Below are positions 1 to 40,400 of a DNA stretch of 64,000 bases, piece by piece. This stretch comes from a virus, in IMG/VR virus record IMGVR_UViG_2974548309_000001, positions 1 to 64,000 of that record; one strand, 5' to 3'. Within the stretch, counting starts at the first letter, position 1. Each line of letters begins with the position of its first letter. The translations under genes and the position numbers were made by a program. The notes under the pieces were generated by a model. It made no database searches and was not told the DNA's origin. It worked only from the letters and a program-made list of their open reading frames with translations.

Positions 1-56
1 ACTTCACACAAATAATTTTTAACTAAAGTACCCCCCCCCCCATACTTCACACAATC

Positions 57-73
57 TAGAGTCTTCGACTCTA
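57..73 (+). promoter_or_regulatory. Hairpin (7-bp stem tagagtc/gactcta, 3-nt loop ttc) followed by cTGGAG; candidate N4-type vRNAP early promoter hairpin (template-strand loop GAA)
   Basis: Perfect inverted repeat with a 3-nt loop read directly from the sequence. Four more hairpins with the same architecture and downstream TGGA lie upstream of early genes. N4 vRNAP promoters are known to be 5-7 bp stem / 3-nt loop hairpins. Confidence 0.45.
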
Positions 74-174
74 CTGGAGTAATGCATCCATGTCTGCTTA
101 CTCGTATGAGCTATATGCCATATATTTGACATGGTCTGCCTATGGATACATAGGCTCCTTTAAATTGTCTGGAG

Positions 175-519
175 ATGTGTATGAAACTTGTAAACTCTAT
201 TGGTATCTTTCGTGCTGTGTCTTCTTCAACTGTATCTGCTCTCAATGCTATTGAGCGTGGTGCAGTAGCTGTAGCTAATACTGCAAATATGGCAGTAGCC
301 TTAACCGAATGGGGTAACGATGAGATTGAGAATCTCCGTCATCACCGTGCTATCAAGCGTGAGGTAGAAGGTGAAATCTTCCGTACCAAATACGTTATGG
401 AAGCAGCTAAAGAAGTGGCAGAGGTACATGCAGAAGCAACCAAAGCTATGGCTAATGCAGACCCGGATGTTAAAGCTGTGTTCGATGAACTGGTAGCTAA
501 GCACCTCAAAGCCAAATAA
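175..519 (+). CDS. Hypothetical early protein (114 aa; start may be Met-3 at 181)
   Basis: Intact ORF in the rightward early block, followed by a terminator-like hairpin. Confidence 0.5.
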   Translation: MCMKLVNSIGIFRAVSSSTVSALNAIERGAVAVANTANMAVALTEWGNDEIENLRHHRAIKREVEGEIFRTKYVMEAAKEVAEVHAEATKAMANADPDVKAVFDELVAKHLKAK

Positions 520-525
520 CCGTAT

Positions 526-555
526 GCCTACTCTTCGGAGTAGGCTTTAAAAATT
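526..555 (+). terminator. Hairpin gcctactc-ttcg-gagtaggc followed by tttaaaaatt; probable intrinsic terminator
   Basis: 8-bp stem with a UUCG tetraloop, directly after the 175..519 stop. Confidence 0.4.
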
Positions 556-843
556 AAAAGCAGAACAGGAACAAAAACAAAAACAAGGTCACACATCAAA
601 AACAAGAACACACATAGGGCCTAAGATAGATAGTAAGTAAGCACTCTGGAGTGTTCACACAACACAATCTGGCAGGTAAGTACTGTATACATATACACTG
701 TATATAGATACATATCGATTCTGAAGCCTGTACGGTACCTAGGAGAAGAGCTAGGGAAAGGTAATAGGGTAGGATACCTGAACCTATTTAAATTGATTCT
801 AGATACCTTACAAGCCTTATACATCACCGAGAAACTACCTCTT

Positions 844-856
844 GTACCTTCGGTAC
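844..856 (+). promoter_or_regulatory. Hairpin gtacc-ttc-ggtac followed by tcgTGGAT; candidate vRNAP early promoter
   Basis: 5-bp stem with a 3-nt ttc loop, about 30 nt upstream of the ORF at 886. Same architecture as 57..73. Confidence 0.4.
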
Positions 857-885
857 TCGTGGATGAATAAGCCAGAGGCACTCAA

Positions 886-1197
886 ATGGGAATCATCAGA
901 CCTATCATTGGTTCAATTCCAGAACCATCAACCCGAGTAGTCAACAAGTACAAGGAGCCATACGATGTCTATATCGGCAGAGGTAGTGTATGGGGAAATC
1001 CTTATACAGTTCAAGCATATGGCAGAGAATTATGCATTGCAATGTACGAGCAGTACATACGTCAGAGACTACATCAGGAACCTGACCTATATCTACAATT
1101 ACTTGAGCTTAAAGGTAAGACATTAGGCTGTTTCTGTAAGCCTAAAGCATGTCATGGAGACATACTTATCAAGCTCATAGAAGAGTATTCAAACTAA
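886..1197 (+). CDS. Small early protein with a 'YIGRGSVWGNPY' motif, possibly DUF4326-like
   Basis: Intact 103-aa ORF. The R-x-S-x-WGNP(F/Y) motif is recalled from the DUF4326 family (recalled from memory, unverified). Confidence 0.45.
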   Translation: MGIIRPIIGSIPEPSTRVVNKYKEPYDVYIGRGSVWGNPYTVQAYGRELCIAMYEQYIRQRLHQEPDLYLQLLELKGKTLGCFCKPKACHGDILIKLIEEYSN

Positions 1198-1544
1198 TAC
1201 TCTAACTATCCCAATTCCAGTCAAACATACCATAGACCACTTAGAGACTATCTGGGTGGTCAGGAGAACTAATGTGCATACATTCAAATTCTATTTCTTA
1301 GATGGCTCAGTTGAGCAAGGCAAGGGTACATCTGTATCAGATGCATTCACAAAATTAGGTTATGGAGCAGGTGCTATTGCTTCATTAGATTACTATGAGC
1401 AACTCAATTAGAGAGAGCTAGTATGCTCAGTCAAATAACAGTATTGGAGTGTGTTCAAATTGAATGGGAGAAATATAACTATCTGCCATTCATTGACCGT
1501 TACAAACTAGTCTCACTTATCAAAAGAATACTGGAGAACTAATT

Positions 1545-1943
1545 ATGTCATACAAAGTTGTTAAATCATGGGTTACTGAAGCTGGTCTGAATGCATGTGT
1601 ACTGCTGGTCAATGATGGTTCACATCATTGTGGTTACGTAGAAGTTCCAGCAGCCATTGAGAACAAAAGGTTCGATGGGCATGGAGACGATGATGTATAC
1701 ATCACAGCACATGGAGGTATCACCTATCAGGGAATACCAGACTGGTCTAACGGTAAGACTGTCATCGGCTTTGACTGTGCTCATGCAGGTGACAGGATGA
1801 AATGCCCGGAGAAGTTCAAAGGTACAGTTATGGAGCACTCATTCATCTACACAGATGGAATCTGGAGAGATGAGGAGTACTGTGCTGATGAGTGTGAAGC
1901 TATTGCTGAACAGTTAATTAACTTAGTGCCAAAGGTGAATTAA
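1545..1943 (+). CDS. Hypothetical early protein (132 aa)
   Basis: ORF with GGAG-like RBS context; no recognisable motif. Confidence 0.5.
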   Translation: MSYKVVKSWVTEAGLNACVLLVNDGSHHCGYVEVPAAIENKRFDGHGDDDVYITAHGGITYQGIPDWSNGKTVIGFDCAHAGDRMKCPEKFKGTVMEHSFIYTDGIWRDEEYCADECEAIAEQLINLVPKVN

Positions 1944-2048
1944 ATGGATATCTGGTATACAGAGTTATTCTGGTCTTTGATTGGTGCCATTGTAGGTGGC
2001 ATCACTGTCTATTTAGCTATCAAATATGGGGATAACCATGATGCGTAA
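1944..2048 (+). CDS. Possible small hydrophobic peptide (34 aa, MDIWYTELFWSLIGAIVGGITVYLAIKYG...)
   Basis: Short ORF absent from the ORF track; it contains a single predicted TM helix. Speculative. Confidence 0.2.
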   Translation: MDIWYTELFWSLIGAIVGGITVYLAIKYGDNHDA

Positions 2049-2165
2049 ATCATTAATCCAGGGTACCAAAGCAGACGTAGCTCGCATGAAGAAGAGAGAG
2101 CTGGCTAAGCAGACAACACGTAGTGATAACTGCGCTCCTCGTCGTATTGTTACGTTTAATCATCC

Positions 2166-2543
2166 ATGTATTCAGGAGGTCTCTTGAAAGTAATCGTAGC
2201 CGGTGGAAGGGACTTCACCGACATGGTGTACATGGACTCATGCATCAAGCAATTAGTCATGGATGGCAGCATCTCTGATAATTCAGAACTGGTGTGTGGC
2301 ATGGCTCGTGGTGCTGATATCACAGGGTTTAACCTTTGGTACTATCACTACAAGCTACCTATCCATAAGTTCTACGCTGACTGGAAGTCAGAGCCTAGAC
2401 GTGCAGGATTCATTCGCAATGAAGACATGGGTGATGTGGCTGATGTGCTGGTAGCATTCTGGGATGGTGAATCCCGTGGTACTAAGCACATGATTGACTA
2501 CATGACCAAGCTGGGCAAACCAGTCTTTATCTTCAAGTATTAA
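2166..2543 (+). CDS. SLOG / DUF2493 (YspA-like Rossmann) family protein; likely true start is TTG at 2184 after AGGAGG
   Basis: Motifs 'VIVAGGRDF' and 'VCGMARGADITG' resemble the SLOG/DprA-LOG glycine-rich loops. Confidence 0.5.
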   Translation: MYSGGLLKVIVAGGRDFTDMVYMDSCIKQLVMDGSISDNSELVCGMARGADITGFNLWYYHYKLPIHKFYADWKSEPRRAGFIRNEDMGDVADVLVAFWDGESRGTKHMIDYMTKLGKPVFIFKY

Positions 2544-2550
2544 TCTTCAT

Positions 2551-2567
2551 CACCGTCTTCGACGGTG
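2551..2567 (+). promoter_or_regulatory. Hairpin caccgtc-ttc-gacggtg followed by gTGGAG; candidate vRNAP promoter
   Basis: 7-bp stem, ttc loop, TGGA 2 nt downstream. Confidence 0.4.
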
Positions 2568-2604
2568 GTGGAGTTCTCCCTTAAGTTCTCCTTTCCCCTG
2601 TAAG

Positions 2605-2619
2605 AGCGACTTCGTCGCT
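2605..2619 (+). promoter_or_regulatory. Hairpin agcgac-ttc-gtcgct followed by ggTGGAA; candidate vRNAP promoter (second of a tandem pair)
   Basis: 6-bp stem, ttc loop; 43 nt upstream of the ATG at 2662. Confidence 0.4.
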
Positions 2620-2661
2620 GGTGGAATAATCCAAAAACCATTAACTATCGAGGTAATTATC

Positions 2662-3093
2662 ATGGCTACTATCAACAACTCTAACGAAGCTCGTTCTATC
2701 ATCGGCGCAGCGCTGGGTGGTAAGGGTAACGGAAATCGTCAGCAGTCCGGCGACCGTCCGCAAGCTGAATTCTTCATCAACATCGGCGTAACCGTTCCGA
2801 TGCCTGATGAAAACGGGGATATGGTGGATACCTTCCTGTCTCTGCCGTATGGCCTGCCGCTGGATACCATGAGCGAGCTGGTTATCCGTGGTAACAACGA
2901 GGTCTGGAACAATCAGGCCGCTGCCCGTAATGAGCTGCTGAAAGCTCTGGTGAAAATGGGTAGCGAGCTGGAAGCGGGTAGCGGTCAGGAGCTGCCGAAA
3001 TTGCAGGTTCAGCTCTATCGCCGTAAAGAGCAGACCGAGCATACCGCATCCACCAGCGCGGTCAGTGCCATCCTGAATGCACTGTCGTCGTAA
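2662..3093 (+). CDS. Hypothetical early protein (143 aa) with host-like, GC-rich codon usage
   Basis: Intact ORF whose GC content is sharply above that of its neighbours. It is flanked by tandem hairpin promoters upstream and a strong terminator downstream. Confidence 0.6.
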   Translation: MATINNSNEARSIIGAALGGKGNGNRQQSGDRPQAEFFINIGVTVPMPDENGDMVDTFLSLPYGLPLDTMSELVIRGNNEVWNNQAAARNELLKALVKMGSELEAGSGQELPKLQVQLYRRKEQTEHTASTSAVSAILNALSS

Positions 3094-3101
3094 TCAGTAA
3101 T

Positions 3102-3129
3102 GGGAACCTTCGGGTTCCCTTTATTTTTT
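3102..3129 (+). terminator. Intrinsic terminator gggaacc-ttcg-ggttccc + tttatttttt
   Basis: Perfect 7-bp GC-rich stem, UUCG loop and a T-run. Confidence 0.7.
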
Positions 3130-3138
3130 GGAGGGGAT

Positions 3139-3321
3139 ATGCGTCTATTAGCAGTGTTTCTACTGTTTATGGTTTGTTTCGGCAAGATAACAATAACCAT
3201 TGTTGATGAAGATACAGTGCAATACCGGCATCAAATGAAATGTGTCAAAGAGAAGATTGCCAACGGAATTCCTCGTAGTGCAATCAAGTTAACTACTGAT
3301 TCATGTGAGGTCATCAAATGA
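3139..3321 (+). CDS. Small hydrophobic protein (60 aa, MRLLAVFLLFMVCFGK...)
   Basis: ATG 9 nt after GGAGG, immediately downstream of the terminator. It corresponds to the 3' part of track ORF 3100..3321. Confidence 0.4.
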   Translation: MRLLAVFLLFMVCFGKITITIVDEDTVQYRHQMKCVKEKIANGIPRSAIKLTTDSCEVIK

Positions 3322-3485
3322 ATATATTCCTGTTGTTGCTGTTTATAGTGCTGCGCACGTTCACTGGGTTGTGTTGGTTTATAGCATCAGCGATATGGTT
3401 CCTGTTCTGTGTAATGATTGGGATTATATGCCTACCTCATTACATAGGTGTATTGGTCAGAACATTAAACAAGCCCTCGAAATGA
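3318..3485 (+). CDS. Small membrane peptide (55 aa, MNIFLLLLFIVLRTFTGLCWFIASAIWFLFCVMIGII...)
   Basis: ORF under the 60-aa track cutoff, ATGA-overlapped with the previous stop and strongly hydrophobic. Preferred over track ORF 3305..3745. Confidence 0.35.
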   Translation: MNIFLLLLFIVLRTFTGLCWFIASAIWFLFCVMIGIICLPHYIGVLVRTLNKPSK

Positions 3486-3514
3486 GGGCTTTAACATGCC
3501 GCTGGGAGATAGTC

Positions 3515-3745
3515 ATGAATAATGAACTACTTATATTTCTTAACGCCTTTGTAAGATCTAATACTTATAAGGGCAGATCGAAAATCTGTTCAACACTTCA
3601 ATCAGAAGCTGAAAACTGTCAAGGAGCTTCATGTAGTGAATGTATCATAATGACTCAACATATATTTGAATATGAATATCCAATAGTAATTATAAATGTG
3701 AGTCAGGCAATTAATCCTAAAGGATGGGATATTAATGAATCCTGA
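3515..3745 (+). CDS. MNxELIxIL-family small Cys-rich protein (member 1; MNNELLIFLNAF...CQGASCSEC)
   Basis: Internal Met of track ORF 3305..3745. It shares the N-terminal motif with six other small ORFs. Confidence 0.45.
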   Translation: MNNELLIFLNAFVRSNTYKGRSKICSTLQSEAENCQGASCSECIIMTQHIFEYEYPIVIINVSQAINPKGWDINES

Positions 3746-3959
3746 ATTAATAGAAATATTCAGAGCCATGAGATTAAAAACCTCATCTCTAATGGCACAT
3801 GATATAGGTCCATTAGATTTTATTTGTGAGTGTATAGAATTTAATGCATTAGATTGGTGTGGAATAAAAGGGGGATGTGACCATTGTCTTTTAGGTACTA
3901 AAGAAGTATTTGGATATTCCAATCAAATAATAGTTACTAATAAAAGACTATATAAATAG
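3735..3959 (+). CDS. MNxELIxIL-family small Cys-rich protein (member 2; MNPELIEIFRAM...)
   Basis: ORF carrying the shared N-terminal motif and Cys pairs (CECIE...CDHC). Confidence 0.5.
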   Translation: MNPELIEIFRAMRLKTSSLMAHDIGPLDFICECIEFNALDWCGIKGGCDHCLLGTKEVFGYSNQIIVTNKRLYK

Positions 3960-4003
3960 GACTATCGATATTGGTAGTCCAATATCAATGTCTTGTTAGA
4001 TAG

Positions 4004-4270
4004 TTGTCAATCCAAGAGGATATCAATATGTCAAAGAAAGTAAAAGAAACTAGTAAAGTAGGAACTGTTAATCTGGGGTATGTTCCTGAATATACAGTGA
4101 CTTACAGTCGTGAAGAGAAGATATGGGGTGTCCATATTAATGGTACATCGGTATATATTCTCAAGCGTCCTGTTAATAAAAAGAACATGTACTATGTTGG
4201 TACACGTTATTTCAAAACTCTAAGGGATGCTATTTTCAGTGTAGTCATTGGAAGTACTATGCCCTTCTAA
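4004..4270 (+). CDS. Hypothetical protein (88 aa)
   Basis: Intact ORF. Confidence 0.45.
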   Translation: MSIQEDINMSKKVKETSKVGTVNLGYVPEYTVTYSREEKIWGVHINGTSVYILKRPVNKKNMYYVGTRYFKTLRDAIFSVVIGSTMPF

Positions 4271-4279
4271 GGGGTATGT

Positions 4280-4450
4280 ATGAACCAAGAATTAATTATT
4301 ATTCTCTCATCCATTTTGGATAAACATCTTTGCTTTAAATTTAAAGCTATAAATTGTGCTGGAATATCATGTCGTAATTGTTGTATTGATAAAAAGCAAA
4401 TTGATAATTACGTATACCAACTAATTCAATTTGGAGAGAGAATACTATGA
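4280..4450 (+). CDS. MNxELIxIL-family small Cys-rich protein (member 3; MNQELIIILSSI...CRNCC...FGERIL)
   Basis: 56-aa ORF below the track cutoff, found by hand. Its stop overlaps the next start (ATGA) and its C-terminus 'GERIL' is shared with member 4. Confidence 0.45.
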   Translation: MNQELIIILSSILDKHLCFKFKAINCAGISCRNCCIDKKQIDNYVYQLIQFGERIL

Positions 4451-4632
4451 ATAAAGAATTGATAGTTATTCTTAGAGCTATTCGTAGTACAGAAAAACTA
4501 TGTCATGAGACTAAAGATTTATTTAGTTGTGATAGTGTTGAATGTGATTCCTGCCCTTTAATGAAAAAAGTATTTACCTCAGAAAAATTTTATATAACTA
4601 AATTTCTTGAATTAGGTGAAAGAATACTATGA
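4447..4632 (+). CDS. MNxELIxIL-family small Cys-rich protein (member 4; MNKELIVILRAI...CDSVECDSCP...LGERIL)
   Basis: ORF with ATGA overlaps at both ends. Confidence 0.5.
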   Translation: MNKELIVILRAIRSTEKLCHETKDLFSCDSVECDSCPLMKKVFTSEKFYITKFLELGERIL

Positions 4633-4859
4633 ATAGGGAACTAATTAAAATAATAGAATCTCTATGTAATAGAGTTGAATATACTTCAAGCTCAGGAATT
4701 ATATTCATCGAAAGTAAACCTGAATTATGTAGGCTTATGAGATTACATAGAATCCCTAAATGCTCAGGTGTTCAATGTGATAATTGCTACTTTACCAGAA
4801 AAGATTTAACTGAAAATATCTATATATTCTGCCTTCATAAAGTTATTCAGACGTTCTAG
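4629..4859 (+). CDS. MNxELIxIL-family small Cys-rich protein (member 5; MNRELIKIIESL...CSGVQCDNC)
   Basis: ORF carrying the shared N-terminal motif. Confidence 0.5.
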   Translation: MNRELIKIIESLCNRVEYTSSSGIIFIESKPELCRLMRLHRIPKCSGVQCDNCYFTRKDLTENIYIFCLHKVIQTF

Positions 4860-4880
4860 TTTTCCTGTCGCTTCGCTCCT

Positions 4881-4893
4881 CAGCCTTCGGCTG
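4881..4893 (+). promoter_or_regulatory. Hairpin cagcc-ttc-ggctg followed by tagTGGGT; candidate vRNAP promoter upstream of the macro-domain gene
   Basis: 5-bp stem with a ttc loop, the same class as 57..73. Confidence 0.35.
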
Positions 4894-4925
4894 TAGTGGG
4901 TAGAATTCAACAATCAGAGGTAAAA

Positions 4926-5429
4926 ATGAGAGAGGCAAAGGGCAATATCCTTGAGATGGATTGTGATGCTGTATGCATTACGACCAATGGATTTGTAAAA
5001 AGTAATAGTGCTGCTGTAATGGGTGCAGGTATTGCCAAGCAAATGCGTATGGTAGTTCCAGGCTTAGATAAAGTGCTGGGACTTAAGATTGCGCAGGAAG
5101 GTAATAATGTACATGCATTACTGACTCACAATGGTATCTGGGTAGTATCATTTCCAGTTAAACCAATCACTGAAATCAGTGATGGTACAAACTTTGTTAA
5201 GCATAAGTTCTTCCCGGAAGGTCAGACAATTCCAGGCTGGGCATGTAAAGCTAAAATCGATTTGATTGAGCGTTCATGCAAACAGTTGGTTCAACTTGCT
5301 AATCAATATGGTTGGCAGAAAGTTGTATTGCCTCGACCGGGATGTGGTGCTGGTGAACTACAGTGGAGAGACGTTAAGAAACGTATCGAACCATTGTTAG
5401 ATGACAGGTTTGTTGTTTGCACCTATTGA
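4926..5429 (+). CDS. Macro-domain (ADP-ribose binding/processing) protein
   Basis: 'GNILEMDCDAVCITTNG...GAGIAKQ' matches the macro-domain 'GDIT..DAIVNAAN..GGGV..AI' core. A downstream 'PRPGCGAGEL' matches the second glycine-rich loop. GAGG RBS 6 nt upstream. Confidence 0.6.
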   Translation: MREAKGNILEMDCDAVCITTNGFVKSNSAAVMGAGIAKQMRMVVPGLDKVLGLKIAQEGNNVHALLTHNGIWVVSFPVKPITEISDGTNFVKHKFFPEGQTIPGWACKAKIDLIERSCKQLVQLANQYGWQKVVLPRPGCGAGELQWRDVKKRIEPLLDDRFVVCTY

Positions 5430-5436
5430 GGTGTTT

Positions 5437-5643
5437 ATGAATCAAGAACTGATATTTATTTTAAATGCAATACATGAAACCCCGGATGAAAGAGCAGGAA
5501 AAGGAAAAGACATATTGTGCAGATGTGTATATTGCACAGATATATTATGTAAATGTTGTCCATTTGATGCTCAGCTATTAGAACTATCTCCCGACGAACA
5601 TTTCGTCGCTCAAATCCATAAATCAATGGAAGCCATATCATGA
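5437..5643 (+). CDS. MNxELIxIL-family small Cys-rich protein (member 6; MNQELIFILNAI...CRCVYCTDILCKCC)
   Basis: Internal Met of track ORF 5401..5643; carries the shared motif. Confidence 0.5.
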   Translation: MNQELIFILNAIHETPDERAGKGKDILCRCVYCTDILCKCCPFDAQLLELSPDEHFVAQIHKSMEAIS

Positions 5644-6152
5644 ATTACGATACTCAACTCCTCATTGATGATTTCAAGCATCATTTCAAATACCAACCTG
5701 ATGGGACGTTGATTCGGCAGAACAATCGCAGAAATGACTTAAATGGACAGGTAGCAGGAACCTTAACCAAGAAGGGATATGTTCAAATATCCTTTAAGGG
5801 GAAGTTCTATTATGCTCATCAAATAATCTGGGCAATCCACCACAACGAATTTGTGAAACAGATTGACCATATTGACCGTGTTAAACATCACAACTGGATT
5901 GAGAATTTACGCAAAGCTACAGCACAAACCAATGCTTATAACAAACAAGGTTCAGCCCGTGGTGGTAGTAAGTTTAAAGGCGTCTATTGGGCACCTCATG
6001 CCAAAAAGTTTGTAGCAAGAATTACAGTCAATAAACAGGTCAAGCATCTAGGGTATTTCGACGATGAGTACAAAGCTGCTGAAGCCTATAACAAAGCTGC
6101 TGCGATTCATCATAAACAATTCGCCTGTACGGAGCTGTCCAATGAGCAATAG
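5640..6152 (+). CDS. HNH homing endonuclease with C-terminal AP2 DNA-binding domain
   Basis: 'IDHIDRVKHHNWIENLR' is an HNH core. 'GVYWAPHAKKFVARI...LGYFDDEYKAAEAYNKAA' is AP2-like. Confidence 0.7.
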   Translation: MNYDTQLLIDDFKHHFKYQPDGTLIRQNNRRNDLNGQVAGTLTKKGYVQISFKGKFYYAHQIIWAIHHNEFVKQIDHIDRVKHHNWIENLRKATAQTNAYNKQGSARGGSKFKGVYWAPHAKKFVARITVNKQVKHLGYFDDEYKAAEAYNKAAAIHHKQFACTELSNEQ

Positions 6153-7071
6153 CTACGAAACTCAACGTTTAATAGAAATGATGTTTAGCAAGCACCAAGC
6201 TCGTGACCTCATAAGAAAAGAATTAAAAGAGTCACCAGATATTATGGAGCTAGTTAATAAGGCAGTAGAGAAAGCCAAAGAATGGCAGATGGGTGATTAC
6301 TTTGAAAGTAAGAATCGTCGATTAGCTATTCTGGATTCAGATATATTTGAAGATTTTTATATCGATGTAGCTGGTTCATTAGCTCAATTCGGTGTAGCCA
6401 AATACACTCAGATAGTTGGTATGGTTTCAGGCATGATTAAAAACATGTCTCAAAAAGAAGCCATACGAACTGCTGGAGAACTTATTGGTTTAGCAGCAAT
6501 CGTAGATTTGGTAGATGTAATACCAGCCAAGCTCAGTAACACTGGTTCAATGGAATTGGTTAGTCGTATCCAGCTTGAACCAAAAACTCTCAAACTCATC
6601 AATCAGTATCAGTACCTTCCTCCAATGGTAGTCCCACCAAGACCTGTTAAAGATAACAAAGGTAGTGGGTATCTATCTATTGAATGGGATTCTCTAATCC
6701 TGAAGAACAATCATCATGAACTGGATATCTGTCTGGATAATATCAACAGATTTAATTCAGTAGCGTTTGCACTGGATGACCGTGTTATCCGAAATATCCG
6801 TGATAACCGTAAGCATCTGGACTCGCCCAAGAGTGAGGAAACTCATGATGAATGGCAAGCACGAGTGGAGTCGTTCCTGAAAATGGAACGTGAATCCATG
6901 AAGGTATTTGCCATGTTAATTAACGAAGGAAACAGGTTCTATCTGACTCACAAGTATGACAAACGTGGTCGTACTTATTGTCAGGGGTACCATGTGTCCT
7001 ATCAGGGTAATACTTATCGTAAAGCCATACTTCAGTTGGCTGATAAAGAACTCGTTCCAGTGGAGGAATAA
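6142..7071 (+). CDS. N4-type RNA polymerase II, small subunit (T7-like RNAP N-terminal-equivalent fragment)
   Basis: Lies immediately upstream of the catalytic T7-like fragment. The chosen start is the ATG overlapping the HNH stop. Assignment is from N4 gene order. Confidence 0.5.
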   Translation: MSNSYETQRLIEMMFSKHQARDLIRKELKESPDIMELVNKAVEKAKEWQMGDYFESKNRRLAILDSDIFEDFYIDVAGSLAQFGVAKYTQIVGMVSGMIKNMSQKEAIRTAGELIGLAAIVDLVDVIPAKLSNTGSMELVSRIQLEPKTLKLINQYQYLPPMVVPPRPVKDNKGSGYLSIEWDSLILKNNHHELDICLDNINRFNSVAFALDDRVIRNIRDNRKHLDSPKSEETHDEWQARVESFLKMERESMKVFAMLINEGNRFYLTHKYDKRGRTYCQGYHVSYQGNTYRKAILQLADKELVPVEE

Positions 7072-7307
7072 TGGCTGAATTATCTAAACCAGAACAACTC
7101 ATCAAAATCACTTTGTTGTTACGTGATATCCCGGATGAGTTGGAAACTCACTTCTGTAGTACCCATCCTGCATGTGAAAAGTTCTGTGGTGAGTCTCACG
7201 ACAAAACTAAATGTGCATTGTTCTATATGTCAAAGGATGAAATTAAACAGACCATCTTTGGTCTGGATTCAGCAGGGAGGCTGCTGGGAATCATTCCTGA
7301 TGAATAA
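7071..7307 (+). CDS. Hypothetical protein (78 aa)
   Basis: Intact ORF between the two RNAP II subunit genes. Confidence 0.4.
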   Translation: MAELSKPEQLIKITLLLRDIPDELETHFCSTHPACEKFCGESHDKTKCALFYMSKDEIKQTIFGLDSAGRLLGIIPDE

Positions 7308-7509
7308 TAAACTTTTAATTATTTTGTCAGAATTAAGATATTGGGCTGTATCAAATAATACAGTAGCAGCTTGCAAAGGTAACTACCTTAATATAGCTGA
7401 TTGGGGTAAATGCGAATTCTTTTGCATGTATTGCTGGCTAGTACAGACCAAATCTAAGAAGTATTACGCAGATAAAATTATCCAAACTTTCTCTCAACTT
7501 AATAAGTGA
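7300..7509 (+). CDS. MNxELIxIL-family small Cys-rich protein (member 7; MNNKLLIILSEL...CEFFCMYC)
   Basis: Internal Met of track ORF 7123..7509, overlapping the upstream stop. Confidence 0.4.
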   Translation: MNNKLLIILSELRYWAVSNNTVAACKGNYLNIADWGKCEFFCMYCWLVQTKSKKYYADKIIQTFSQLNK

Positions 7510-8744
7510 GACTCAAGATGCAGACGTTCACTCCGTTCCAGTATATCAAATTAGATATTGCTAACTCCTTTGGTTTAGACAAGGAGTTGTTTGAGGACCG
7601 GTTAAACTGGTTCGAAGCAAATAAAGATAACTTATCTGGTTTGGTGGATGATGCAGATGAACCTGCACAATTCTACGCAGGTAAGTTGTGCTATGAAGAT
7701 ACCAAGGCAGGACTGCCTACAGGGTATCTGGTAGGTATGGATGCTACTGCATCTGGTCTACAGTGCATGGCAGCACTGACAGGCTGTAAAGTCACAGCAG
7801 AGACTGTGAACATGGTTAATCCTGATGTACGTCATGATGCATACACCGATGGCTATAAAGTCATGGGTGACCTGCTGGATGGCAAACTGGATAAGATTGA
7901 ACGTTCTCATACCAAGGATGCGACTATGACCCATTTCTATGGGTCGAGAGCTAATCCAGTAAACCTGTTTGGTGAGAACACCATAGAGCTTCAGAAGTTC
8001 TATGAAATGGTTCAAATCATTGCTCCAGGTGCAAACATGCTCCGTGACGATTTGATTGCCCTATGGCAGGCAAATGCCCTACAGCATCACTGGACACTTC
8101 CAGATGGATTTAATGCTGTAGTTAAAGTCATGGTTCCGATGGAAGATAGCTTTGAAGTTAATGAACTGAATAGCTCGTTCACTCATCGTTATTGGGTTAA
8201 CCAAGGTCAGAAAGCTGGTCTGTCACTTGCAGCAAATGTCATTCACTCAGTAGATGGGATGATTGTTCGTGAGATGAATCGTCGTGCTAACTACGATTTG
8301 CTCAAAGTACAGCGTGTATACGAGCTTCTGACGAGTTCTACTAAGGCAGGCAGTGTTAAGCCTTCAGTAAGTGATACAAGGCTTGCACAGGCTCTTAAAT
8401 TAACTGAATCCCATAAGTTTGTATCTGCTGTTCTGATTGAGTTTATCGACCATCTCAATATTCACATGGTTCCTCATTGGGTTCGTAAAGAACTAATTGA
8501 AATCATTGAGAAGATGTTAGCTCATAAACCATACCCGATAGTGTCAATTCACGATTGTTTCAAATGTCATCCTCTATACATGAATAATGTACGTCAGAAC
8601 TATATCGATATCTTTGCACAGATTGCTGACAGCAATATGCTGTCTGCTATTGCATCTCAGATATCTGGTAAGCGTATTCCTGTCGCTAAGCTGTCTAACG
8701 ACCTGTCCAAATATATCCGCCAGAGTAATTACATGTTGAGCTAA
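7506..8744 (+). CDS. N4-type RNA polymerase II, catalytic subunit (T7-like single-subunit RNAP palm/fingers)
   Basis: 'GMDATASGLQCMAAL' matches T7 RNAP motif A, 'DGSCSGIQHFSAML'. 'SIHDCF' matches motif C, 'HDSFGT'. First ATG at 7518. Confidence 0.7.
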   Translation: MRLKMQTFTPFQYIKLDIANSFGLDKELFEDRLNWFEANKDNLSGLVDDADEPAQFYAGKLCYEDTKAGLPTGYLVGMDATASGLQCMAALTGCKVTAETVNMVNPDVRHDAYTDGYKVMGDLLDGKLDKIERSHTKDATMTHFYGSRANPVNLFGENTIELQKFYEMVQIIAPGANMLRDDLIALWQANALQHHWTLPDGFNAVVKVMVPMEDSFEVNELNSSFTHRYWVNQGQKAGLSLAANVIHSVDGMIVREMNRRANYDLLKVQRVYELLTSSTKAGSVKPSVSDTRLAQALKLTESHKFVSAVLIEFIDHLNIHMVPHWVRKELIEIIEKMLAHKPYPIVSIHDCFKCHPLYMNNVRQNYIDIFAQIADSNMLSAIASQISGKRIPVAKLSNDLSKYIRQSNYMLS

Positions 8745-8750
8745 AATCCT

Positions 8751-9131
8751 ATGTCTATCTTCACAGCTGTAACTATCGATATTGACCCGTCAGGTCATTA
8801 CGTAGGTATTAACCGTGACCGTATACGTGACTCTCTCGGGTACATACCTGAGATTGTTAATCGTGCTGTTTTATCTTCTGAAAATGAAGATGATGTAGGT
8901 CACAGGATTTGGGAAGTCTACTCATATGGGGAGCCTATGCTCCCTTCAGAAACTGAATCCAAATTCAGTAATGGTTTACTAACCTATCCGGGAGATGAAC
9001 CGCAATATCCAATTGCTGTTTATTATCTGAATAACACCAAAGGGCTTGATATCAAGTTCTGGCAATACGAGCGAGCCATGACCGTGTATACGGTCAATGG
9101 CGAAGCGAGACTAATCGGGAGAATGGATTAA
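8751..9131 (+). CDS. Hypothetical protein (126 aa)
   Basis: Intact ORF. Confidence 0.5.
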   Translation: MSIFTAVTIDIDPSGHYVGINRDRIRDSLGYIPEIVNRAVLSSENEDDVGHRIWEVYSYGEPMLPSETESKFSNGLLTYPGDEPQYPIAVYYLNNTKGLDIKFWQYERAMTVYTVNGEARLIGRMD

Positions 9132-9478
9132 TGATTACTATCGGTTTAATGATGAGAATGCAGTTTATCAAAGACCCTGAAGGTCATGGGTCTAACGTAA
9201 TTATCAAAGCATTTTATTACGACAAGGTTTGGGTACAACATGAACAATCAGGTGTCGATGAGTTAGTAGATATCGCTGATGTTGCATTCCGTAGCCCAAT
9301 TCCGGGTGATGCCCCTAACCACGACCTTATTGCCAGAGACCTTAGAGGTAAATGGCTCTTCTGGAAAGCTGAAGATGGATACTGGTATGAATGCTCAGAC
9401 CCAACAATCCCAACCACAGCCGAATACCAAGGTGAGGTTGAAGCCTATTCGGGCGAAGAACCTAAAACCCTTCACTAA
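9131..9478 (+). CDS. Hypothetical protein (115 aa)
   Basis: Intact ORF with ATGA overlap. Confidence 0.5.
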   Translation: MITIGLMMRMQFIKDPEGHGSNVIIKAFYYDKVWVQHEQSGVDELVDIADVAFRSPIPGDAPNHDLIARDLRGKWLFWKAEDGYWYECSDPTIPTTAEYQGEVEAYSGEEPKTLH

Positions 9479-9479
9479 G

Positions 9480-9635
9480 ATGTATGCCTGGGATGGAAAT
9501 ATCTATCCCATTCATAACGTCTTTATTAATGAATCTATCAAGATTTATGTTTGGGATGGATGGAAATATATCTCTGTCCTCCTACACCCCGAGGATTATG
9601 TATGCGTAGTTGTAAACGAGCAGTACTTGATGTAG
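9480..9635 (+). CDS. Small protein (51 aa, MYAWDGNIYPIHNVF...)
   Basis: ATG 2 nt after the upstream stop. Confidence 0.3.
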   Translation: MYAWDGNIYPIHNVFINESIKIYVWDGWKYISVLLHPEDYVCVVVNEQYLM

Positions 9636-34416: not shown

Positions 34417-34445
34417 CCCATCCTTGGGGCTTTTTCTTTTAGTAC
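34417..34445. terminator. Bidirectional terminator aagcccca-tcc-ttggggctt flanked by A- and T-runs, between convergent rightward middle genes and the leftward vRNAP gene
   Basis: Perfect 9-bp stem with T-runs on both strands. Confidence 0.65.
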
Positions 34446-37400
34446 AGTTCAACCAGTGGGTGTACTGTGAATCCATTCAATGCAGTACCTATCCCAATGT
34501 TGTAGTTCAGGCTGCCAGTCACTAAGTTAGCGTCAGTGATGTTCGGCAGATTCGATTCCCAACTATTACTGAACATCAGGAAGAGTGCTCTCAGTGGATT
34601 CTCACGAATCGTTCTGAGAATAACTTTCTGAATTCTAATCTTATAGTTCAGGAACCAAGTTAATCCCATTGCATCCAGATAGAATCTGGTACGACTTGGA
34701 AGGATATCGTAGTTAACGAATTCATCCATCACTCGTGCAATGGCACTATCTTTATCCATTGGATTATTCTTACGAGTAGTCAGCTGTTTATACAGTGAAT
34801 ACTTAGCAACGAAGTCACCATACTGAATTGAACGGTTTAGTAAGAAGTAGATATGACTATCTCTTGAAAGTGTTACTTCCTTAGCAACTCGTTTAACACT
34901 GTCTGGAACAGAAGAAGTGTATTCGTCCATTTTGGTTAACAGTTTATCTTTCAGAGAGTAATCATCCTGCTGACCTAAATCCTCTGCGATAGTAGGCAGT
35001 AAACCTGCTTTGATTAAATCAGCAACAGGGTTACGGGCCTGTGAATCTTTGAGTTCAGAAATCTTTCTCTGATACTCATCAGCCATCTTAGGATTCTGTC
35101 CTACAGCCAGATAGTGAGAATACTCGTTAATCAGTTTCTCATTTCTTCTGTATTCTTCAGCAGCCAATACAGCTACAGACATGTCTTTAGCCATAGTAAC
35201 TGGACTGATGCCTACAGTCGCTAAGTGAACCATGTTGGAAACAATGTTGGCTGCTGATACGACTACTGAACGTACAACAATCCAATCTTTCATTTCCTTC
35301 ACAAATTCCATAATCCCACGCTCACCTAAGCGGAGATACTTAGCAGCATTCTTACCTAAGAATGTCTCTGCGATACTCACAAAGGCTTTCTGGAACTCTT
35401 TAGAGTAACCAGTCTGACCAGCCCACATATTCAGTACAGAAGGCTCACGATAACCAAATGCGTTATTCAGTAAGTCTTTACGTACCTTGATATCACCATT
35501 AGGCCAAATCTTTTTGGCAGCTTCTTTCATTTCAATTGGCATCAACTCATAAATCTCTTTGAGCTGTGCATCAGTTGAGTTCTTATTGATAGTGATGTAC
35601 TGGTATGCATTGCCTTGGCGAGCATCTTTCACATACATCTCATGCAATCTCTGAAGAAGCATCTCATTGTATTTCTCAGCCTGAATCTCCTCAGCAATAC
35701 GACCTTCCCAAGCTGCCATTACCTTAGTGAAATCATTATCAATATCCAGATGTGCTTCTTTGTTAGCACGAGGAATTTGATAAGAGTATCCCATGATTGA
35801 ACCAGCTCTATTCAGAGTAGGTTGCATATAGCTCTGAGTACCAGTAGGCATAGGCTTATTGGCATCAAACAGTTCATCAACCTTACTACGTTTCAGAGTA
35901 GCTAATGCAGTTTTCTCCTTACTACCCCAAACACCTGGGGTCATTGAACCATTAACACTTCTACCTGAAATTGGGTTTACACCACCTACGGTGGTTTGTA
36001 GGGTGCTCATTACCCCAGCAATCCAACGAGGCTCACCACCATTATTTGAGTGGTAGTAGTACATTGGCTGCTTGCTTAGGTCACTTGGGTCACGAGCAAA
36101 CTGAGCACCTCTGACGTAGCCTCTACGAATCAGGCTTGGCTCATCTAAAACAGATGCCACAATGACCTTTTTATTTGGGTCAGTCAGAGTAGGCGTGTAA
36201 CCTTTTACAGCTGCCAGAGACTGATTCTTACCAGATTTGGCTAACTCAGCACTCTGCAAACTGCTGTAATATTTCAGCGTAAAAGTCATGCCATTGTTAT
36301 CTGGCTCACCTTTAGTCATCTCTCTACTGATGACATTACTTACAGTTTCTTTATCAGCTTGTGACAATTCAGTCAGAGCTGACAATGAAGCCAGAGTATC
36401 AATCAGCTGCGTAGCTGAGTTAACAACAGTATCGTTAGGTCTGACTTTACCAGTACCGATTAAGCGAGCAATAGCCGCAGCATTAGGCAACTGATAAACC
36501 AGTGGACTAACTCCATGCACCATTTGCTTAGCCAAGCCTTTAGCAGACTTAATATAGAATGGGGCATTCTGGGCACCAACTGAATTGAGCTGAGATTCCA
36601 TAGAAGCAATCTCTTTAGCCAGTTCATTTGGATTAGTCAGTAACTCATTCAGACGAGCCAAGTCATATCCATTGGCAAACAGATAAGCCATATCAGTATT
36701 AGCAACCACCTTCTGAATAGCTTCTTTCTCAGTCTGGTTCAGTGAAACAAAAGTCTGCTCAATCATGCCCGGAACCATCTCACGAATAATCTGACGTGCT
36801 CTATCAGCAGCCATGTTCTTCTGAGTTAACAAGGTATGAATGCTCTGATTGGTTTCATTGGAACCAATGAATTCATTAACCAGTTCAGCCAGAGTACCCA
36901 GCTTATCATCCTGATGAATGTTCATCATGATAGTGGTAATTGCTGTACGCACGTCCTGAGCATCTTGGTCATTGAATACAGCAGAACCAGCACTGATACC
37001 AAACGCTACAGACTTAGGAACAATCTTCTGTACCTTGAGTAACTGGTTTCTAACCATGTGACCAAAGGCATTCAGTTTATCCTGAACAGTCTGCGAGATT
37101 TCTTCGCTACCACGTTCAACTCTTCCCAGCAGATTATCTCTGACTTCACTATCAACATGGCTAATGTTTTTAGCCAGTTTAGTTAAGCGAGTAGCAACAG
37201 TAGCATTGGACAGAGATTTAGTAGCCAGTCCTGACAGCCAAGTCAGAATGGAATTAACTAAATCACCAATACGTTCTCTGATGGTAGTAGCCGGTGCTGA
37301 ACGAGTACGTTTAACACTCATTTGAGCCAGTTTATTTCTCAGAGGTTCATTGGTTTCTGCTAATGCAATAAAGTTAGCCAATCTGTTAGTACGACCAGTA

Positions 37401-40400
37401 GCATCAGTAGTGATAGCAGTATTGCCAAATACAGCATAATATCTCTGTTTAGCCAGAGCCATCTCAGTAGCAGACGTGTTGTTAGGGTCAGTGAGGAAAT
37501 CACTATACTTCAACTGGTCTCTTGCCTGAGCATACAGACTACGTGCTACCAGAACATTTGGAGAGAAATTCTCCAGACCATACTTCATAGATACCTGAAG
37601 CATCTTGAAGACAAACGCCTCTTTCTCACTCATGTCAAAACCATGAGCAATCAGAGCATCTGGAGATTTATCAATCTCAGGGTCAATGCTATCTACCAAG
37701 AGTTTCTCTTGGAAATGGTCCAGACCAGAAATCTGCTGACCAGATTGTTTAATCACTCTAACAATATTTGACTGGAGATAATCCAGAGTATCAGTCAAAT
37801 GATTGATATGGTCTTGCGTTGCTTTACCCGGTTTCAGTTTGTTGAACAAGGTTTCAGCATCCAATCTGTTAATGTTGTTGGCATTACGCTGTGCAAAACT
37901 GGTTACATCGTCTGTATTCACAGAAGTTGTAGCATCAGTTAATGCAACAGTATGACCTAGCAGTCTTGACCAGTAAGAGTTAATCTCTGGATTAGAACCA
38001 ATTGCAAACAAGCGCTTGATAGAATCAGCTAACTGTTTCAGCACATTGGTAACCTTACCGGCAATAGTCTTCTTAGTCATTGCATCAATCATTCTTGGGT
38101 TAACTAAACCCCATGCAATGAATTCAGCAGTAGCCTGAGCCATATCACCAGTTTCAATGTGATTCTTAATCAGATTAACTACAGAATCTGTTTCTGGATT
38201 AGTGTTTGTATATTCATTAACAAACTTAGTCATGAGAGCTTCAATAGAAGCAATCTCAGTTCTCTGATTTGGATTTAGACTGGTTGGGTCAATGTAATAA
38301 GCCTGAACAGTATTGGCAGTAGCAGCATGGATTAACTCATGCATAACTGTCTCAATAGACTGAGAACCGATATAGATGTTCTGGCCTTCTGTAAGCCCTA
38401 AGAAGCTGTTAGTAAACTTAGCCTTAGTATCAGGCGTCATTTCTTGTTGAATAGCTGATAGAGCTTCTGGAGAGCCTACATAAACATTAATATCGTTAGG
38501 AATGACTTTCTCAATTTTATCAAGAATAAATCCAGTGATTTTATTCTGACGAGATGGCAGAGATTTAGCTGCCTCTCTAACAGCAGCAACCACATCACCT
38601 TTAGCCAGAACTTTAACACCTTCATGACCAGCCAGATTTCTACCATTCTTATCCAGAGCCTCAGTCATCTGACGAGTAGGTGGAATGGTTACTCTACCCA
38701 TAGGCAGAGATACTGAATCCATAGTTGGTAATTCAGTATTAGAAACTAATTGCTCCAGAGGAGTTCTGATATCAGTAGCTTGTTCACTGGTCTGCTTACC
38801 ATTCTGTACATTGAATGGAATGTTAGCACCAGTCATCTGGTTAATAGAGGTAACTGTATCACCAGCAAATAAACCTCGTTTGATAGCAGTCTGAGTAGCA
38901 GCTTCTCTCTTAAGCAGAGTAGTGAATGCTTTCATTACTTCTGGGCTAGTAGGTGAATCAGTTTCATCAGCACCAATCATTTCCATAATTCCACGGAAAG
39001 ATTGTCCCAGACGAATATTAGCTTCTGGACCTAATTCCTCTACTAAATTCACTCCATCCATTGCTTGTTCAAAGCGGTTAGTGAAATCTTGCAGTAAATC
39101 GAATTCATTCCAGCTTTGCAGAACACCTTGGTTAATAGCCTGTGAACCAGACTCAAGATGCTGAACAGCATTGATGTAACCATCGAATACGTTAAGTGCG
39201 TTATTCGGGTTGATATCACGAGCAATGGCTTGCATAGCTGCTTCTACAGACTGAACCAATAAAGGCATTACACGAGTACCTGGTTCGGTATAGGTAGGCA
39301 TGTCTACACCAAAGGTAGACCTACGCATTTTACCATCTAGTTCTCTACGCCCTCTGGACTCCATTCTGTATACATCAGATGGAATACGTCCTTCCTCACT
39401 CAGAAGAATACCTTCGTTCAGCCTATCAACATCTAAGTTGTTAGCAGTGAACCATGAATTAAAAATTGGCATTGAACCAATCAAATAATTCTTAATGTCA
39501 TTGTACTGCTGCTGAGATAAAGACTCATATTTAGAGAGCTTACCTGCTTTACGCAGTTCATCTTCTAAACGAGTTACTTCTTTATTCCATCGAGCCATGA
39601 ACACTTCATGCATCACAGCAGCAGCGTAAACCATCATCTTGCCACGGTTAATTACAGTACCAAATTCAGTAGCAATAGACTGATTAACAGCAGCGCCAAT
39701 CCCGATTTTAATGTTTTGAGTGATAGCATCAATTTGTTCTCCGGAGAATTTAAATTGGGTTACATCAGACCCTAAATTAATAGGTTCTCCGATATTAACC
39801 CAGTCACCATTACGGAATACACGAGCAGAAGTTAACTCGTTAGTAGTTTGAGTCAGGTCTTGGATATGAGCAATTGCAGCATCTCTCTCTTCAACAGTAG
39901 TTGCTGAATCCACTGCTCTTAATGCTTTAGTAATTGCTTCGTAGTAACCATTAACAATACCCATAGCAATCTTTCTATTAATAGCGTTAGCACCACCAGA
40001 ATAGACTGTTACGGTTACTGGATTCTTAAGTAATCCACGACCAATCTTAATTGTATGTTCAACTTGTTCACCTTCGACAATATTCACATCACCAATTAGT
40101 TTGTAAGCAGCCAGAGTTACACGCACCTGATTTCTCAGACGTTCAATGTTTCTGGTTTCCTCCCGCTGTTCCTGACGAGACTTACCTTTCATAGCTGCAA
40201 TTCTGTTAGGAATAGCACGGAAAGAGTCCATCATATTGTTGATGTACTGTTGAGTACCAGCAGCAGCAGTCTTATATAGGTCTAAGAATCCTGGGTCTTC
40301 AGCAGCATCATTGTACAGACGGTCAGATTGAGCATAGAACAAACCACCCTTCTCCAGTTTATCTAGAAGGTCTTGGTTAATATCTTTTAATCCAAGATGG

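Follow-up and report, generated by a model that had tools for sequence, protein, structure and literature searches.

Putative N4-type hairpin promoters for the virion RNA polymerase in the early region of Klebsiella phage Pylas

Five triloop hairpins at the left end of the genome

The DNA studied here, hereafter called the window, is a stretch of 64,000 nucleotides from a virus (positions 1 to 64,000 of IMG/VR record IMGVR_UViG_2974548309_000001), and its leftmost 4.9 kb hold a family of five short hairpins that we examined as candidate early promoters. Positions 1-5000 of the window match the beginning of Klebsiella phage Pylas (MH899585) with 100% identity, and the window as a whole corresponds to bases 1-64000 of the 70,408-bp Pylas genome. 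Pylas is an N4-like phage of the genus Pylasvirus (Schitoviridae, Humphriesvirinae), and its record annotates a 769-bp terminal repeat at 1-769, plus many small rightward genes. The same GenBank record annotates no promoters and a single 'terminator' feature (2545-2577), which coincides with one of the five hairpins (site C below); the Pylas genome announcement does not mention promoters, and our literature search found no paper describing such promoters for Pylas or for Humphriesvirinae.

A sequence-only reading of this DNA had listed the five hairpins, and all of them were returned at the same coordinates by an independent scan of both strands of the window for perfect inverted repeats with a 3-nt loop and a stem of at least 5 bp; each lies on the + strand, with a perfect stem of 5-7 bp and a TTC loop. 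Site A (57-73, +; TAGAGTC-ttc-GACTCTA, then c TGGA; 7-bp stem) sits inside the terminal repeat; it is 57 nt away from the genome end and 108 nt before gene 001 (181-519), these and the following distances to genes being counted from the hairpin end to the annotated start codon. Site B (844-856, +; GTACC-ttc-GGTAC, then tcg TGGA; 5-bp stem) is found 30 nt before gene 002 (886-1197), which belongs to DUF4326 and is the first of a block of genes running from 002 to 008. Site C (2551-2567, +; CACCGTC-ttc-GACGGTG, then g TGGA; 7-bp stem) begins 2 nt past the stop codon of gene 008 and is the upstream member of a tandem pair. The gene ahead of which this pair stands, 95 nt from site C, encodes a homologue (2662-3093, +; BLASTP, 34% identity, E 1e-18) of gp2, the N4 single-stranded-DNA-binding cofactor of the second, heterodimeric phage RNA polymerase (RNAPII), which is responsible for middle transcription. 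The downstream member, site D (2605-2619, +; AGCGAC-ttc-GTCGCT, then gg TGGA; 6-bp stem), stands 43 nt ahead of the gp2 homologue and, centre to centre, 53 nt past site C. Site E (4881-4893, +; CAGCC-ttc-GGCTG, then tag TGGG; 5-bp stem) precedes the macro-domain gene 018 by 33 nt, and two RNAPII subunit genes come after 018. The early-region, rightward placement that had been proposed is thus borne out, with five of five sites on the + strand and none farther than 4.9 kb from the left end.

The loop is closed as C-TTC-G at all five sites, and the bases that follow are TGGA at sites A-D and TGGG at site E; the template strand reads 5'-C(GAA)G-3' in every case, with CC at +1/+2. It had been proposed that TGG(A/G) follows the stem after 1-3 nt. 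The presence of TGG stands, but the real constant is the distance to the loop: the variable gap after the stem exactly offsets the length of the stem, so that T, G and G always fall at +10, +11 and +12 from the loop centre.

This set of hairpins is far beyond what chance would produce. Hairpins with a 3-nt loop and at least 5 bp of stem are common in the window (155 per strand), and those with a TTC loop number nine on the + strand and two on the - strand, of which only the five sites have TGG in register; the remaining TTC-loop hairpins (four on +, two on -) lack it. The full motif, in which a TTC loop on a stem of 5 bp or more is combined with TGG in register, was observed five times, compared to an expectation of 0.017 and a maximum of 1 in 300 dinucleotide-preserving shuffles searched on both strands. 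When the stem was left out of the pattern (CTYCGN7TGG), eight matches were found against 1.47 expected, and the extra ones have stems of just 1-2 bp. Six further window matches to a relaxed pattern (CTYCGN4TN3GG) were rejected since all of their stems are likewise 1-2 bp, and a pattern search of Pylas 62000-70408, the final 8.4 kb of the genome, returned no matches.

Conservation and covariation in related phages

Conservation in related phages was one of the points on which the sequence-only reading had staked its proposal, and the hairpins are indeed conserved there, with compensatory changes in their stems. Five syntenic sites each were found in phages MY01, KpCHEMY26, TR2, Pollock, Shigella B2 and FSL SP-058; altogether, the five sites were checked in eight related phages or contigs and recur there at syntenic positions, and sites A-D could be found and aligned in three further metagenomic contigs. 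The stem-free pattern yields four or five sites per relative, all on the gene strand. Across the relatives, the three extra contigs and N4, we counted 12 different stems, all of them 100% Watson-Crick and without a G·T pair. Site A is kept in 10 relatives. The syntenic stems at site B (GTACC, CCCTC and CTCAC) are each fully complementary, and CCGTC/GACGG at site C is replaced in TR2-type phages by the compensated CTGGC/GCCAG, as is CAGCC at site E by CTGCC/GGCAG in Pollock. The hairpin and leader of site D (2600-2632) are invariant in seven of seven aligned phages, and the spacing between sites C and D stays at 51-53 nt in all relatives.

An ungapped alignment of the coding strand of 50 sites (33 distinct sequences) resolved these patterns by column. 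Invariant positions are C-13, T-12, C-10, G-9, T-4 and G+2, with T-11, T-1 and G+1 nearly so. Among the 33 distinct sequences, all 165 of the 165 stem-pairing cells are Watson-Crick and none is G·T; the closing pair does not vary, and four of the five stem pairs show double compensatory changes, compared to a pairing of 22-49% in controls with slid partner columns. The sites in the relatives were picked by loop and start sequence, not by stem, and their complementarity is therefore an independent observation, with the reservation that orthologous sites have a common ancestry. The lack of G·T pairs fits better with a hairpin formed by the template DNA strand than with an RNA hairpin.

An independent check used a covariance model trained on the relatives and N4, from which all Pylasvirus sequences were left out. 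Applied to the window, this clade model reported exactly five sites, with scores of 22-36 bits and E values from 1.6e-4 to 5e-9 (A, 33.2 bits, E 5e-8; B, 22.4 bits, E 1.6e-4; C, 35.8 bits; D, 36.3 bits; E, 28.8 bits), and the next match scored 14 bits.

Two further elements came to light around the aligned sites. Just upstream of hairpin E, a 16-mer, TGTCGCTTCGCTCCTC (4866-4881), is invariant in seven of seven aligned phages and has variable flanks; it holds a second CTTCG core (4871-4875) with a stem of 2 bp only and no TGG in register, and may be what is left of a tandem promoter, or else a site of binding or processing. In the right-end region of Salmonella phage TR2 (1195-1208 of the locus examined), an extra hairpin with a 4-nt loop (ACGTC-ctcc-GACGT gga TGGGG) stands upstream of a rightward right-end open reading frame (ORF), and no counterpart of it was found in Pylas.

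Proposed promoter function and early transcription units

Hairpin promoters of this general kind are known from phage N4, whose early promoters P1-P3 have been mapped experimentally and for which crystal and cryo-EM structures with the P2 and P1 hairpins exist. The proposed match to the architecture of these promoters, which serve the N4 virion RNA polymerase (vRNAP), held when we scanned the N4 record, where P1 (90-102; GTTGC-ttc-GCAAC tta TGGA, before gp1), P2 (557-573; AAGAAGC-tcc-GCTTCTT t TGGA, before gp2) and P3 (4546-4562; AAGCTGC-tcc-GCAGCTT t TGGT, before the RNAPII genes) have the same layout and the same loop-to-TGG register as the Pylas sites. N4 promoters are centred at -11. Their extrusion and stability require the 3'G:C5' closing pair together with the 5'G and the 3'A of the template loop, and the stability is attributed to stacking and a sheared G·A pair; recognition by the enzyme involves -11A/G, -10G, -8G and +1C, with W129 stacking on -11, R904 contacting -8G via the major groove, and a beta-intercalating hairpin placing the end of the duplex between -5 and -4 (PMC4496689). 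Most of these determinants recur in Pylas. The template closing pair -13G:-9C is present (coding C-13 and G-9 in 50 of 50 aligned sites), the template loop has -10G and -12A at five of five sites (the corresponding coding T-12 and C-10 being invariant in the alignment), the -11 purine is an A at all five, as in N4 P1, and GG preceded by T occupies +11/+12 from the loop centre at each site, in the register of the mapped N4 starts.

The enzyme that we propose reads the five hairpins is the 3819-aa product of a virion RNA polymerase gene on the - strand (34439-45898; phmmer E 9e-166 to N4 vRNAP structures), in which the catalytic residues D559, R666, K670, Y678 and D951 (N4 mini-vRNAP numbering) are conserved with top posterior probability. 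GenBank labels this true vRNAP only 'RNA polymerase' and assigns the name 'virion RNA polymerase subunit' to the two RNAPII subunit genes (N4 gp15/gp16-like), which is a mislabel. The polymerase domain is 80-90% identical within the Pylas group and about 22-26% identical to every other schitovirus, N4 types included; a homologous-protein search with the Pylas domain returned no matches at E <= 1e-10. Among the N4 promoter-contact residues that we compared (K114, R119, W129, K267/K268, K849/K850, D901 and R904), K850 aligns with Pylas K2123 at good posterior probability, while the MAFFT and HMMER alignments differ at D901/R904 in the specificity loop, both with low confidence.

Taken together, the five hairpins are very probably N4-type early promoters for the giant RNA polymerase packaged in the Pylas virion. 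This reading draws on how the sites are built, their fixed register, their confinement to one strand of the early region, their conservation and covariation, and the fact that the genome encodes the polymerase, while extrusion, dependence on single-stranded DNA-binding protein (SSB) and gyrase, the exact starts and the activity of each site would carry over by analogy with N4. Promoters of the N4 type need extrusion driven by gyrase as well as host SSB, and are active on single-stranded template only. Mechanistically, the left genome end would enter the cell together with the polymerase, and supercoiling by host gyrase would cause the short inverted repeats to extrude as cruciforms. On the template strand, a stem of at least 5 bp would be capped by the very stable 5'-C(GAA)G-3' triloop with its sheared G·A pair between -10G and -12A, and the non-template hairpin would be melted by host SSB. 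The polymerase would then recognise the template hairpin through its loop, the G:C closing pair and the double-strand/single-strand junction at -5/-4, and RNA would begin with GG on template CC, 11 nt past the loop centre, that is, at predicted +1 positions G76 (c TGGAG), G861, G2570, G2623 and G4898 (tag TGGG) for sites A to E, respectively. As judged from the aligned sites, the likely clade consensus is C-TTC-G, any Watson-Crick stem with a G/C junction pair, T at -4, and a T-GG start.

These starts suggest four early transcription units. The first would run from site A through gene 001 and end at a terminator-type hairpin (526-545, +; GCCTACTC-ttcg-GAGTAGGC then TTTAAAAATT) that follows this gene and folds as RNA with -14.3 kcal/mol (z -4.2). 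The second would lead from site B through genes 002-008. The third would be driven by the tandem sites C and D into the gp2 homologue and closed by a strong intrinsic terminator (3102-3119, +; GGGAACC-ttcg-GGTTCCC then TTTATTTTTT) after that gene, and the fourth would comprise the macro-domain gene downstream of site E and the two RNAPII subunit genes (6142-7071 and 7518-8744, both +), whose Pollock equivalents are annotated as N4 gp15-like and gp16-like. The early region contains two classes of hairpin one loop base apart, the putative promoters with a C(TTC)G triloop and TGG and the terminators with a C(UUCG)G tetraloop and a T-rich tail. The stretch around the gp2 homologue (2601-3200) is the most GC-rich of the early region (52% vs a genome mean of 41%), and the leader and ribosome-binding region of this gene are nearly invariant across genera; both features appear to agree with very high expression from tandem promoters.

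Several observations concern the surroundings of these units. At the left end (window 1-54), a C12 homopolymer (31-42) lies between two copies of ACTTCACACAA (1-11 and 44-54), the second of which adjoins hairpin A. The left ends of Pollock, MY01 and Shigella B2 are alike, with a CACACA motif, about 20 nt, a C10-12 run, ATACTTCACACA and the hairpin; genome-end recognition, a packaging signal or an aid to hairpin extrusion are possible roles for this layout. Six paralogous small ORFs (56-76 aa; 3515-4859 and 5437-5643) share the start MNxEL(I/L)..(I/F)(L/F/I) and have 4-6 cysteines; five of them fall within a very AT-rich stretch (28-34% GC), and no hairpin promoter stands ahead of the block. 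An HNH endonuclease gene (5640-6152) separates the macro-domain gene from the first RNAPII subunit gene. No HNH gene is given at that locus in the annotation tables of MY01, KpCHEMY26, Pollock and SP-058, and the gene is likely a recent insertion into the site-E unit. Matches to sigma-70-like promoters are strongly depleted in window 1-9500 (8 vs 30 ± 6.3 in shuffles), which agrees with a region not meant for the host polymerase.

A number of points weigh against assigning the five hairpins to an N4-type virion polymerase. The literature search found no transcript 5' ends or in vitro data for Pylas or its subfamily. The template -8G, described as essential for N4 vRNAP, is absent, the base being T, C, T, A and C at sites A to E; the position varies among the relatives, with G only in the N4 sites and in TR2-type site C, and the contact is a trait of the N4 enzyme's own specificity. 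The polymerase domain of Pylas shares only about 24% identity with N4-type enzymes, and the N4 -11 recognition element (K114, R119, W129) could not be aligned with it by MAFFT or in a phmmer pairwise comparison with N4. At site E, the -1 T is lost in the two closest relatives (C in MY01, G in KpCHEMY26), and TGG has moved by +1 base in TR2. Nearest-neighbour DNA folding beats shuffles only modestly (z -1.1 to -1.8 for sites A, B and E), a type of calculation that, as used here, does not capture the stability of the C(GAA)G triloop. Lastly, a covariance model built from N4 P1-P3 alone cannot separate the sites from background in the window, as site D is its best match with 13.7 bits (E 0.5, not significant), site B scores 10.1 bits amid chance matches, and sites A, C and E are not among the matches listed; we attribute this failure to N4-specific stem and flank bases that are not shared, and do not read it as evidence against the hairpins.

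A joint reading of the polymerase and of site C is put forward tentatively, and we consider it rather doubtful as a whole. The polymerases of Humphriesvirinae and Triduovirus would have been re-tuned, giving up the -8G contact and relying for recognition on the C(GAA)G triloop, the G/C pair at the -5/-17 junction, the invariant T at -4 and TGG, and site C would be used twice. As RNA, its 29 bases would fold into a 13-bp hairpin by which the upstream early transcript is ended or stabilised; as template DNA, they would form a 7-bp hairpin from which the first of the two tandem gp2 transcripts starts.

It is quite improbable that the hairpins act at the RNA level instead, whether as intrinsic terminators or as structures at which upstream transcripts end or are processed, or, in a weaker form that does not exclude promoter function, that site C alone is bifunctional, ending or stabilising the RNA from site B and serving as promoter for the gp2 homologue. 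In favour of this idea, site C begins directly behind gene 008, its + sense stem can be extended to 13 bp (2545-2573) through two G·T/U pairs that correspond to C·A mismatches on the template strand, and as RNA it folds with -19.8 kcal/mol (z -4.4). The extended stem and the position after the gene 008 stop explain why GenBank carries a 'terminator' call there, and TransTermHP called site C a terminator. In addition, five differences between TR2-type phages and Pylas in the outer 5' arm are all transitions that keep pairing with the G/T-rich 3' arm; this covariation argument is weak, since any 5'-arm transition opposite G or T keeps pairing, and the outer 3' arm is in any case constrained by the promoter start region. 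The Rho-independent pattern of a GC-rich stem-loop followed by a T-run is found at none of the five sites, and the terminator scan lists none of them. Site A, at the very end of the genome, has nothing upstream to terminate, the core stems lack the G·U pairs that an RNA hairpin would tolerate (0 in 165 cells), and an RNA role leaves the invariant loop and closing pair, the -4 T and the register-locked TGG unexplained. We accordingly rejected site C as a plain terminator, given the missing T-run and its conservation as a promoter-type site, and keep a dual terminator/promoter role for it as a minority hypothesis.

Promoters for RNAPII, rather than for the virion enzyme, would be another source of hairpins, because the middle promoters of Pseudomonas phage LUZ7 are GC-rich hairpins too, in which a loop of 3-4 nt caps a stem of 6 bp or more and transcription starts at a G about 15 nt further on (PMC9163698). 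A sixth TTC hairpin of Pylas fits this LUZ7 middle geometry better than the early one, having TGG 15 nt from the loop centre. We nevertheless regard it as very unlikely that the five sites are RNAPII promoters. They stand ahead of the genes that RNAPII itself needs, for its two subunits and its gp2 cofactor, whose expression is required before RNAPII exists; in their register (+11) and loop determinants they match the mapped N4 vRNAP promoters, and the RNAPII promoters of N4 do not take the form of hairpins and initiate with T.

The sixth hairpin (AAGCACC-ttc-GGTGCTT; about 65,504-65,520 of the Pylas record, beyond the window) shares the C-TTC-G core and lies in a divergent intergenic region upstream of a rightward tRNA cluster. 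Its TGGA, at 15 nt rather than 11, is preceded by TTTCTTT, and the clade model gives it 15.5 bits. The element is conserved as an island in Pollock and KpCHEMY26, and could be a middle-type hairpin promoter or a terminator.

Chance or generic inverted repeats without specific function, an idea that the abundance of 3-nt-loop hairpins and the five other hairpins with TGG in register, different loops and a scattered distribution on both strands might invite, is effectively refuted by the excess of the full motif over shuffled sequences, the confinement of all five sites to one strand of the first 4.9 kb, and their retention across genera with compensatory changes.

If the five hairpins are early promoters of the virion polymerase, they yield a testable early transcription map of Pylas and its relatives, with five predicted starts and four units. 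The map would be useful for annotating the Klebsiella, Salmonella and E. coli phages of this subfamily that are therapeutic candidates, for which no promoters are on record and one of the sites carries a terminator label. Furthermore, the 12 natural stem variants and the lost -8G offer a specificity panel for studying how hairpin recognition by giant virion polymerases diverges. The understanding of how N4-like phages start infection is unchanged.

Comparison with known hairpin promoters

The core of the template hairpins resembles a structural motif rather than a genetic element. Hirao and co-workers reportedly described extra-stable DNA mini-hairpins of the d(GCGAAGC) type, in which a GNA triloop is closed by C:G, and the template core 5'-C-GAA-G-3' of all five sites is like these.

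As a genetic system, the Pylas sites have their closest mapped counterpart in N4. Both share a template-strand hairpin of 5-7 bp with a 3-nt loop, the closing G:C pair, -10G, -12A and a -11 purine, as well as a non-template T at -4 and TGG, with template CC, 11 nt from the loop centre, where N4 starts and Pylas is predicted to start. Both also have their sites in the leftmost part of the genome, directed rightward, with the first site within the terminal repeat, and place them ahead of the gene in the gp1 position, the gp2 gene and the RNAPII genes. On this basis, sites A and D are the positional equivalents of N4 P1 and P2, and site E is the functional equivalent of P3. Pylas differs in having five sites instead of three, with an extra one before the 002-008 block and a tandem pair before gp2; in its loops, which are all GAA as in N4 P1, whereas those of P2 and P3 are GGA; and in its template -8 base, which is never G, so that the N4 R904 contact is without a counterpart base.

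The sequence-only reading had regarded the downstream TGGA and the number of sites as specific to this genome, which did not hold for either. TGGA occurs in the same register at N4 P1 and P2, as does TGGT at P3, the G being the known +1 (template +1C); the downstream TGGA is thus the known start region and not special to Pylas, and TGG(A) is likewise found in Klebsiella phage KP8. The set of five sites recurs in the six relatives with full syntenic complements. For KP8, four early promoters (P1-P4) ending in TGGA or TGGG have been predicted (PMC6950046, Table 1). Like the Pylas sites, these combine a hairpin, three bases and TGGA/TGGG, number more than three, and stand ahead of gp2-type and RNAPII genes (PMC6950046). 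They differ in having TCC loops and, in the stem, the N4-type GC at -14/-8; resemblance to N4 was the basis on which they were identified, and KP8 is a member of another subfamily, Enquatrovirinae (PMC6950046).

In LUZ7, nine early starts have been mapped by ONT-cappable-seq, and the two strongest lie in tandem before the gp2-type gene Drc, the top-expressed gene of this phage (PMC9163698). Its early promoters resemble those proposed here in being hairpins whose stems measure 4 bp or more and whose 3-nt loop is conserved, in preferring G as the start and in numbering more than three, whereas the LUZ7 start lies 13-14 nt from the hairpin centre, compared to the predicted 11 nt in Pylas, and its tandem spacing is 33 nt, compared to 51-53 nt in the Pylas group (PMC9163698). 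More than three sites and a tandem pair before a gp2-type gene are therefore already known from KP8 and LUZ7 and are not new. Overall, the five Pylas hairpins are best explained as new, previously unannotated members of a known promoter class, probably common to the whole subfamily and with altered stem specificity relative to N4.

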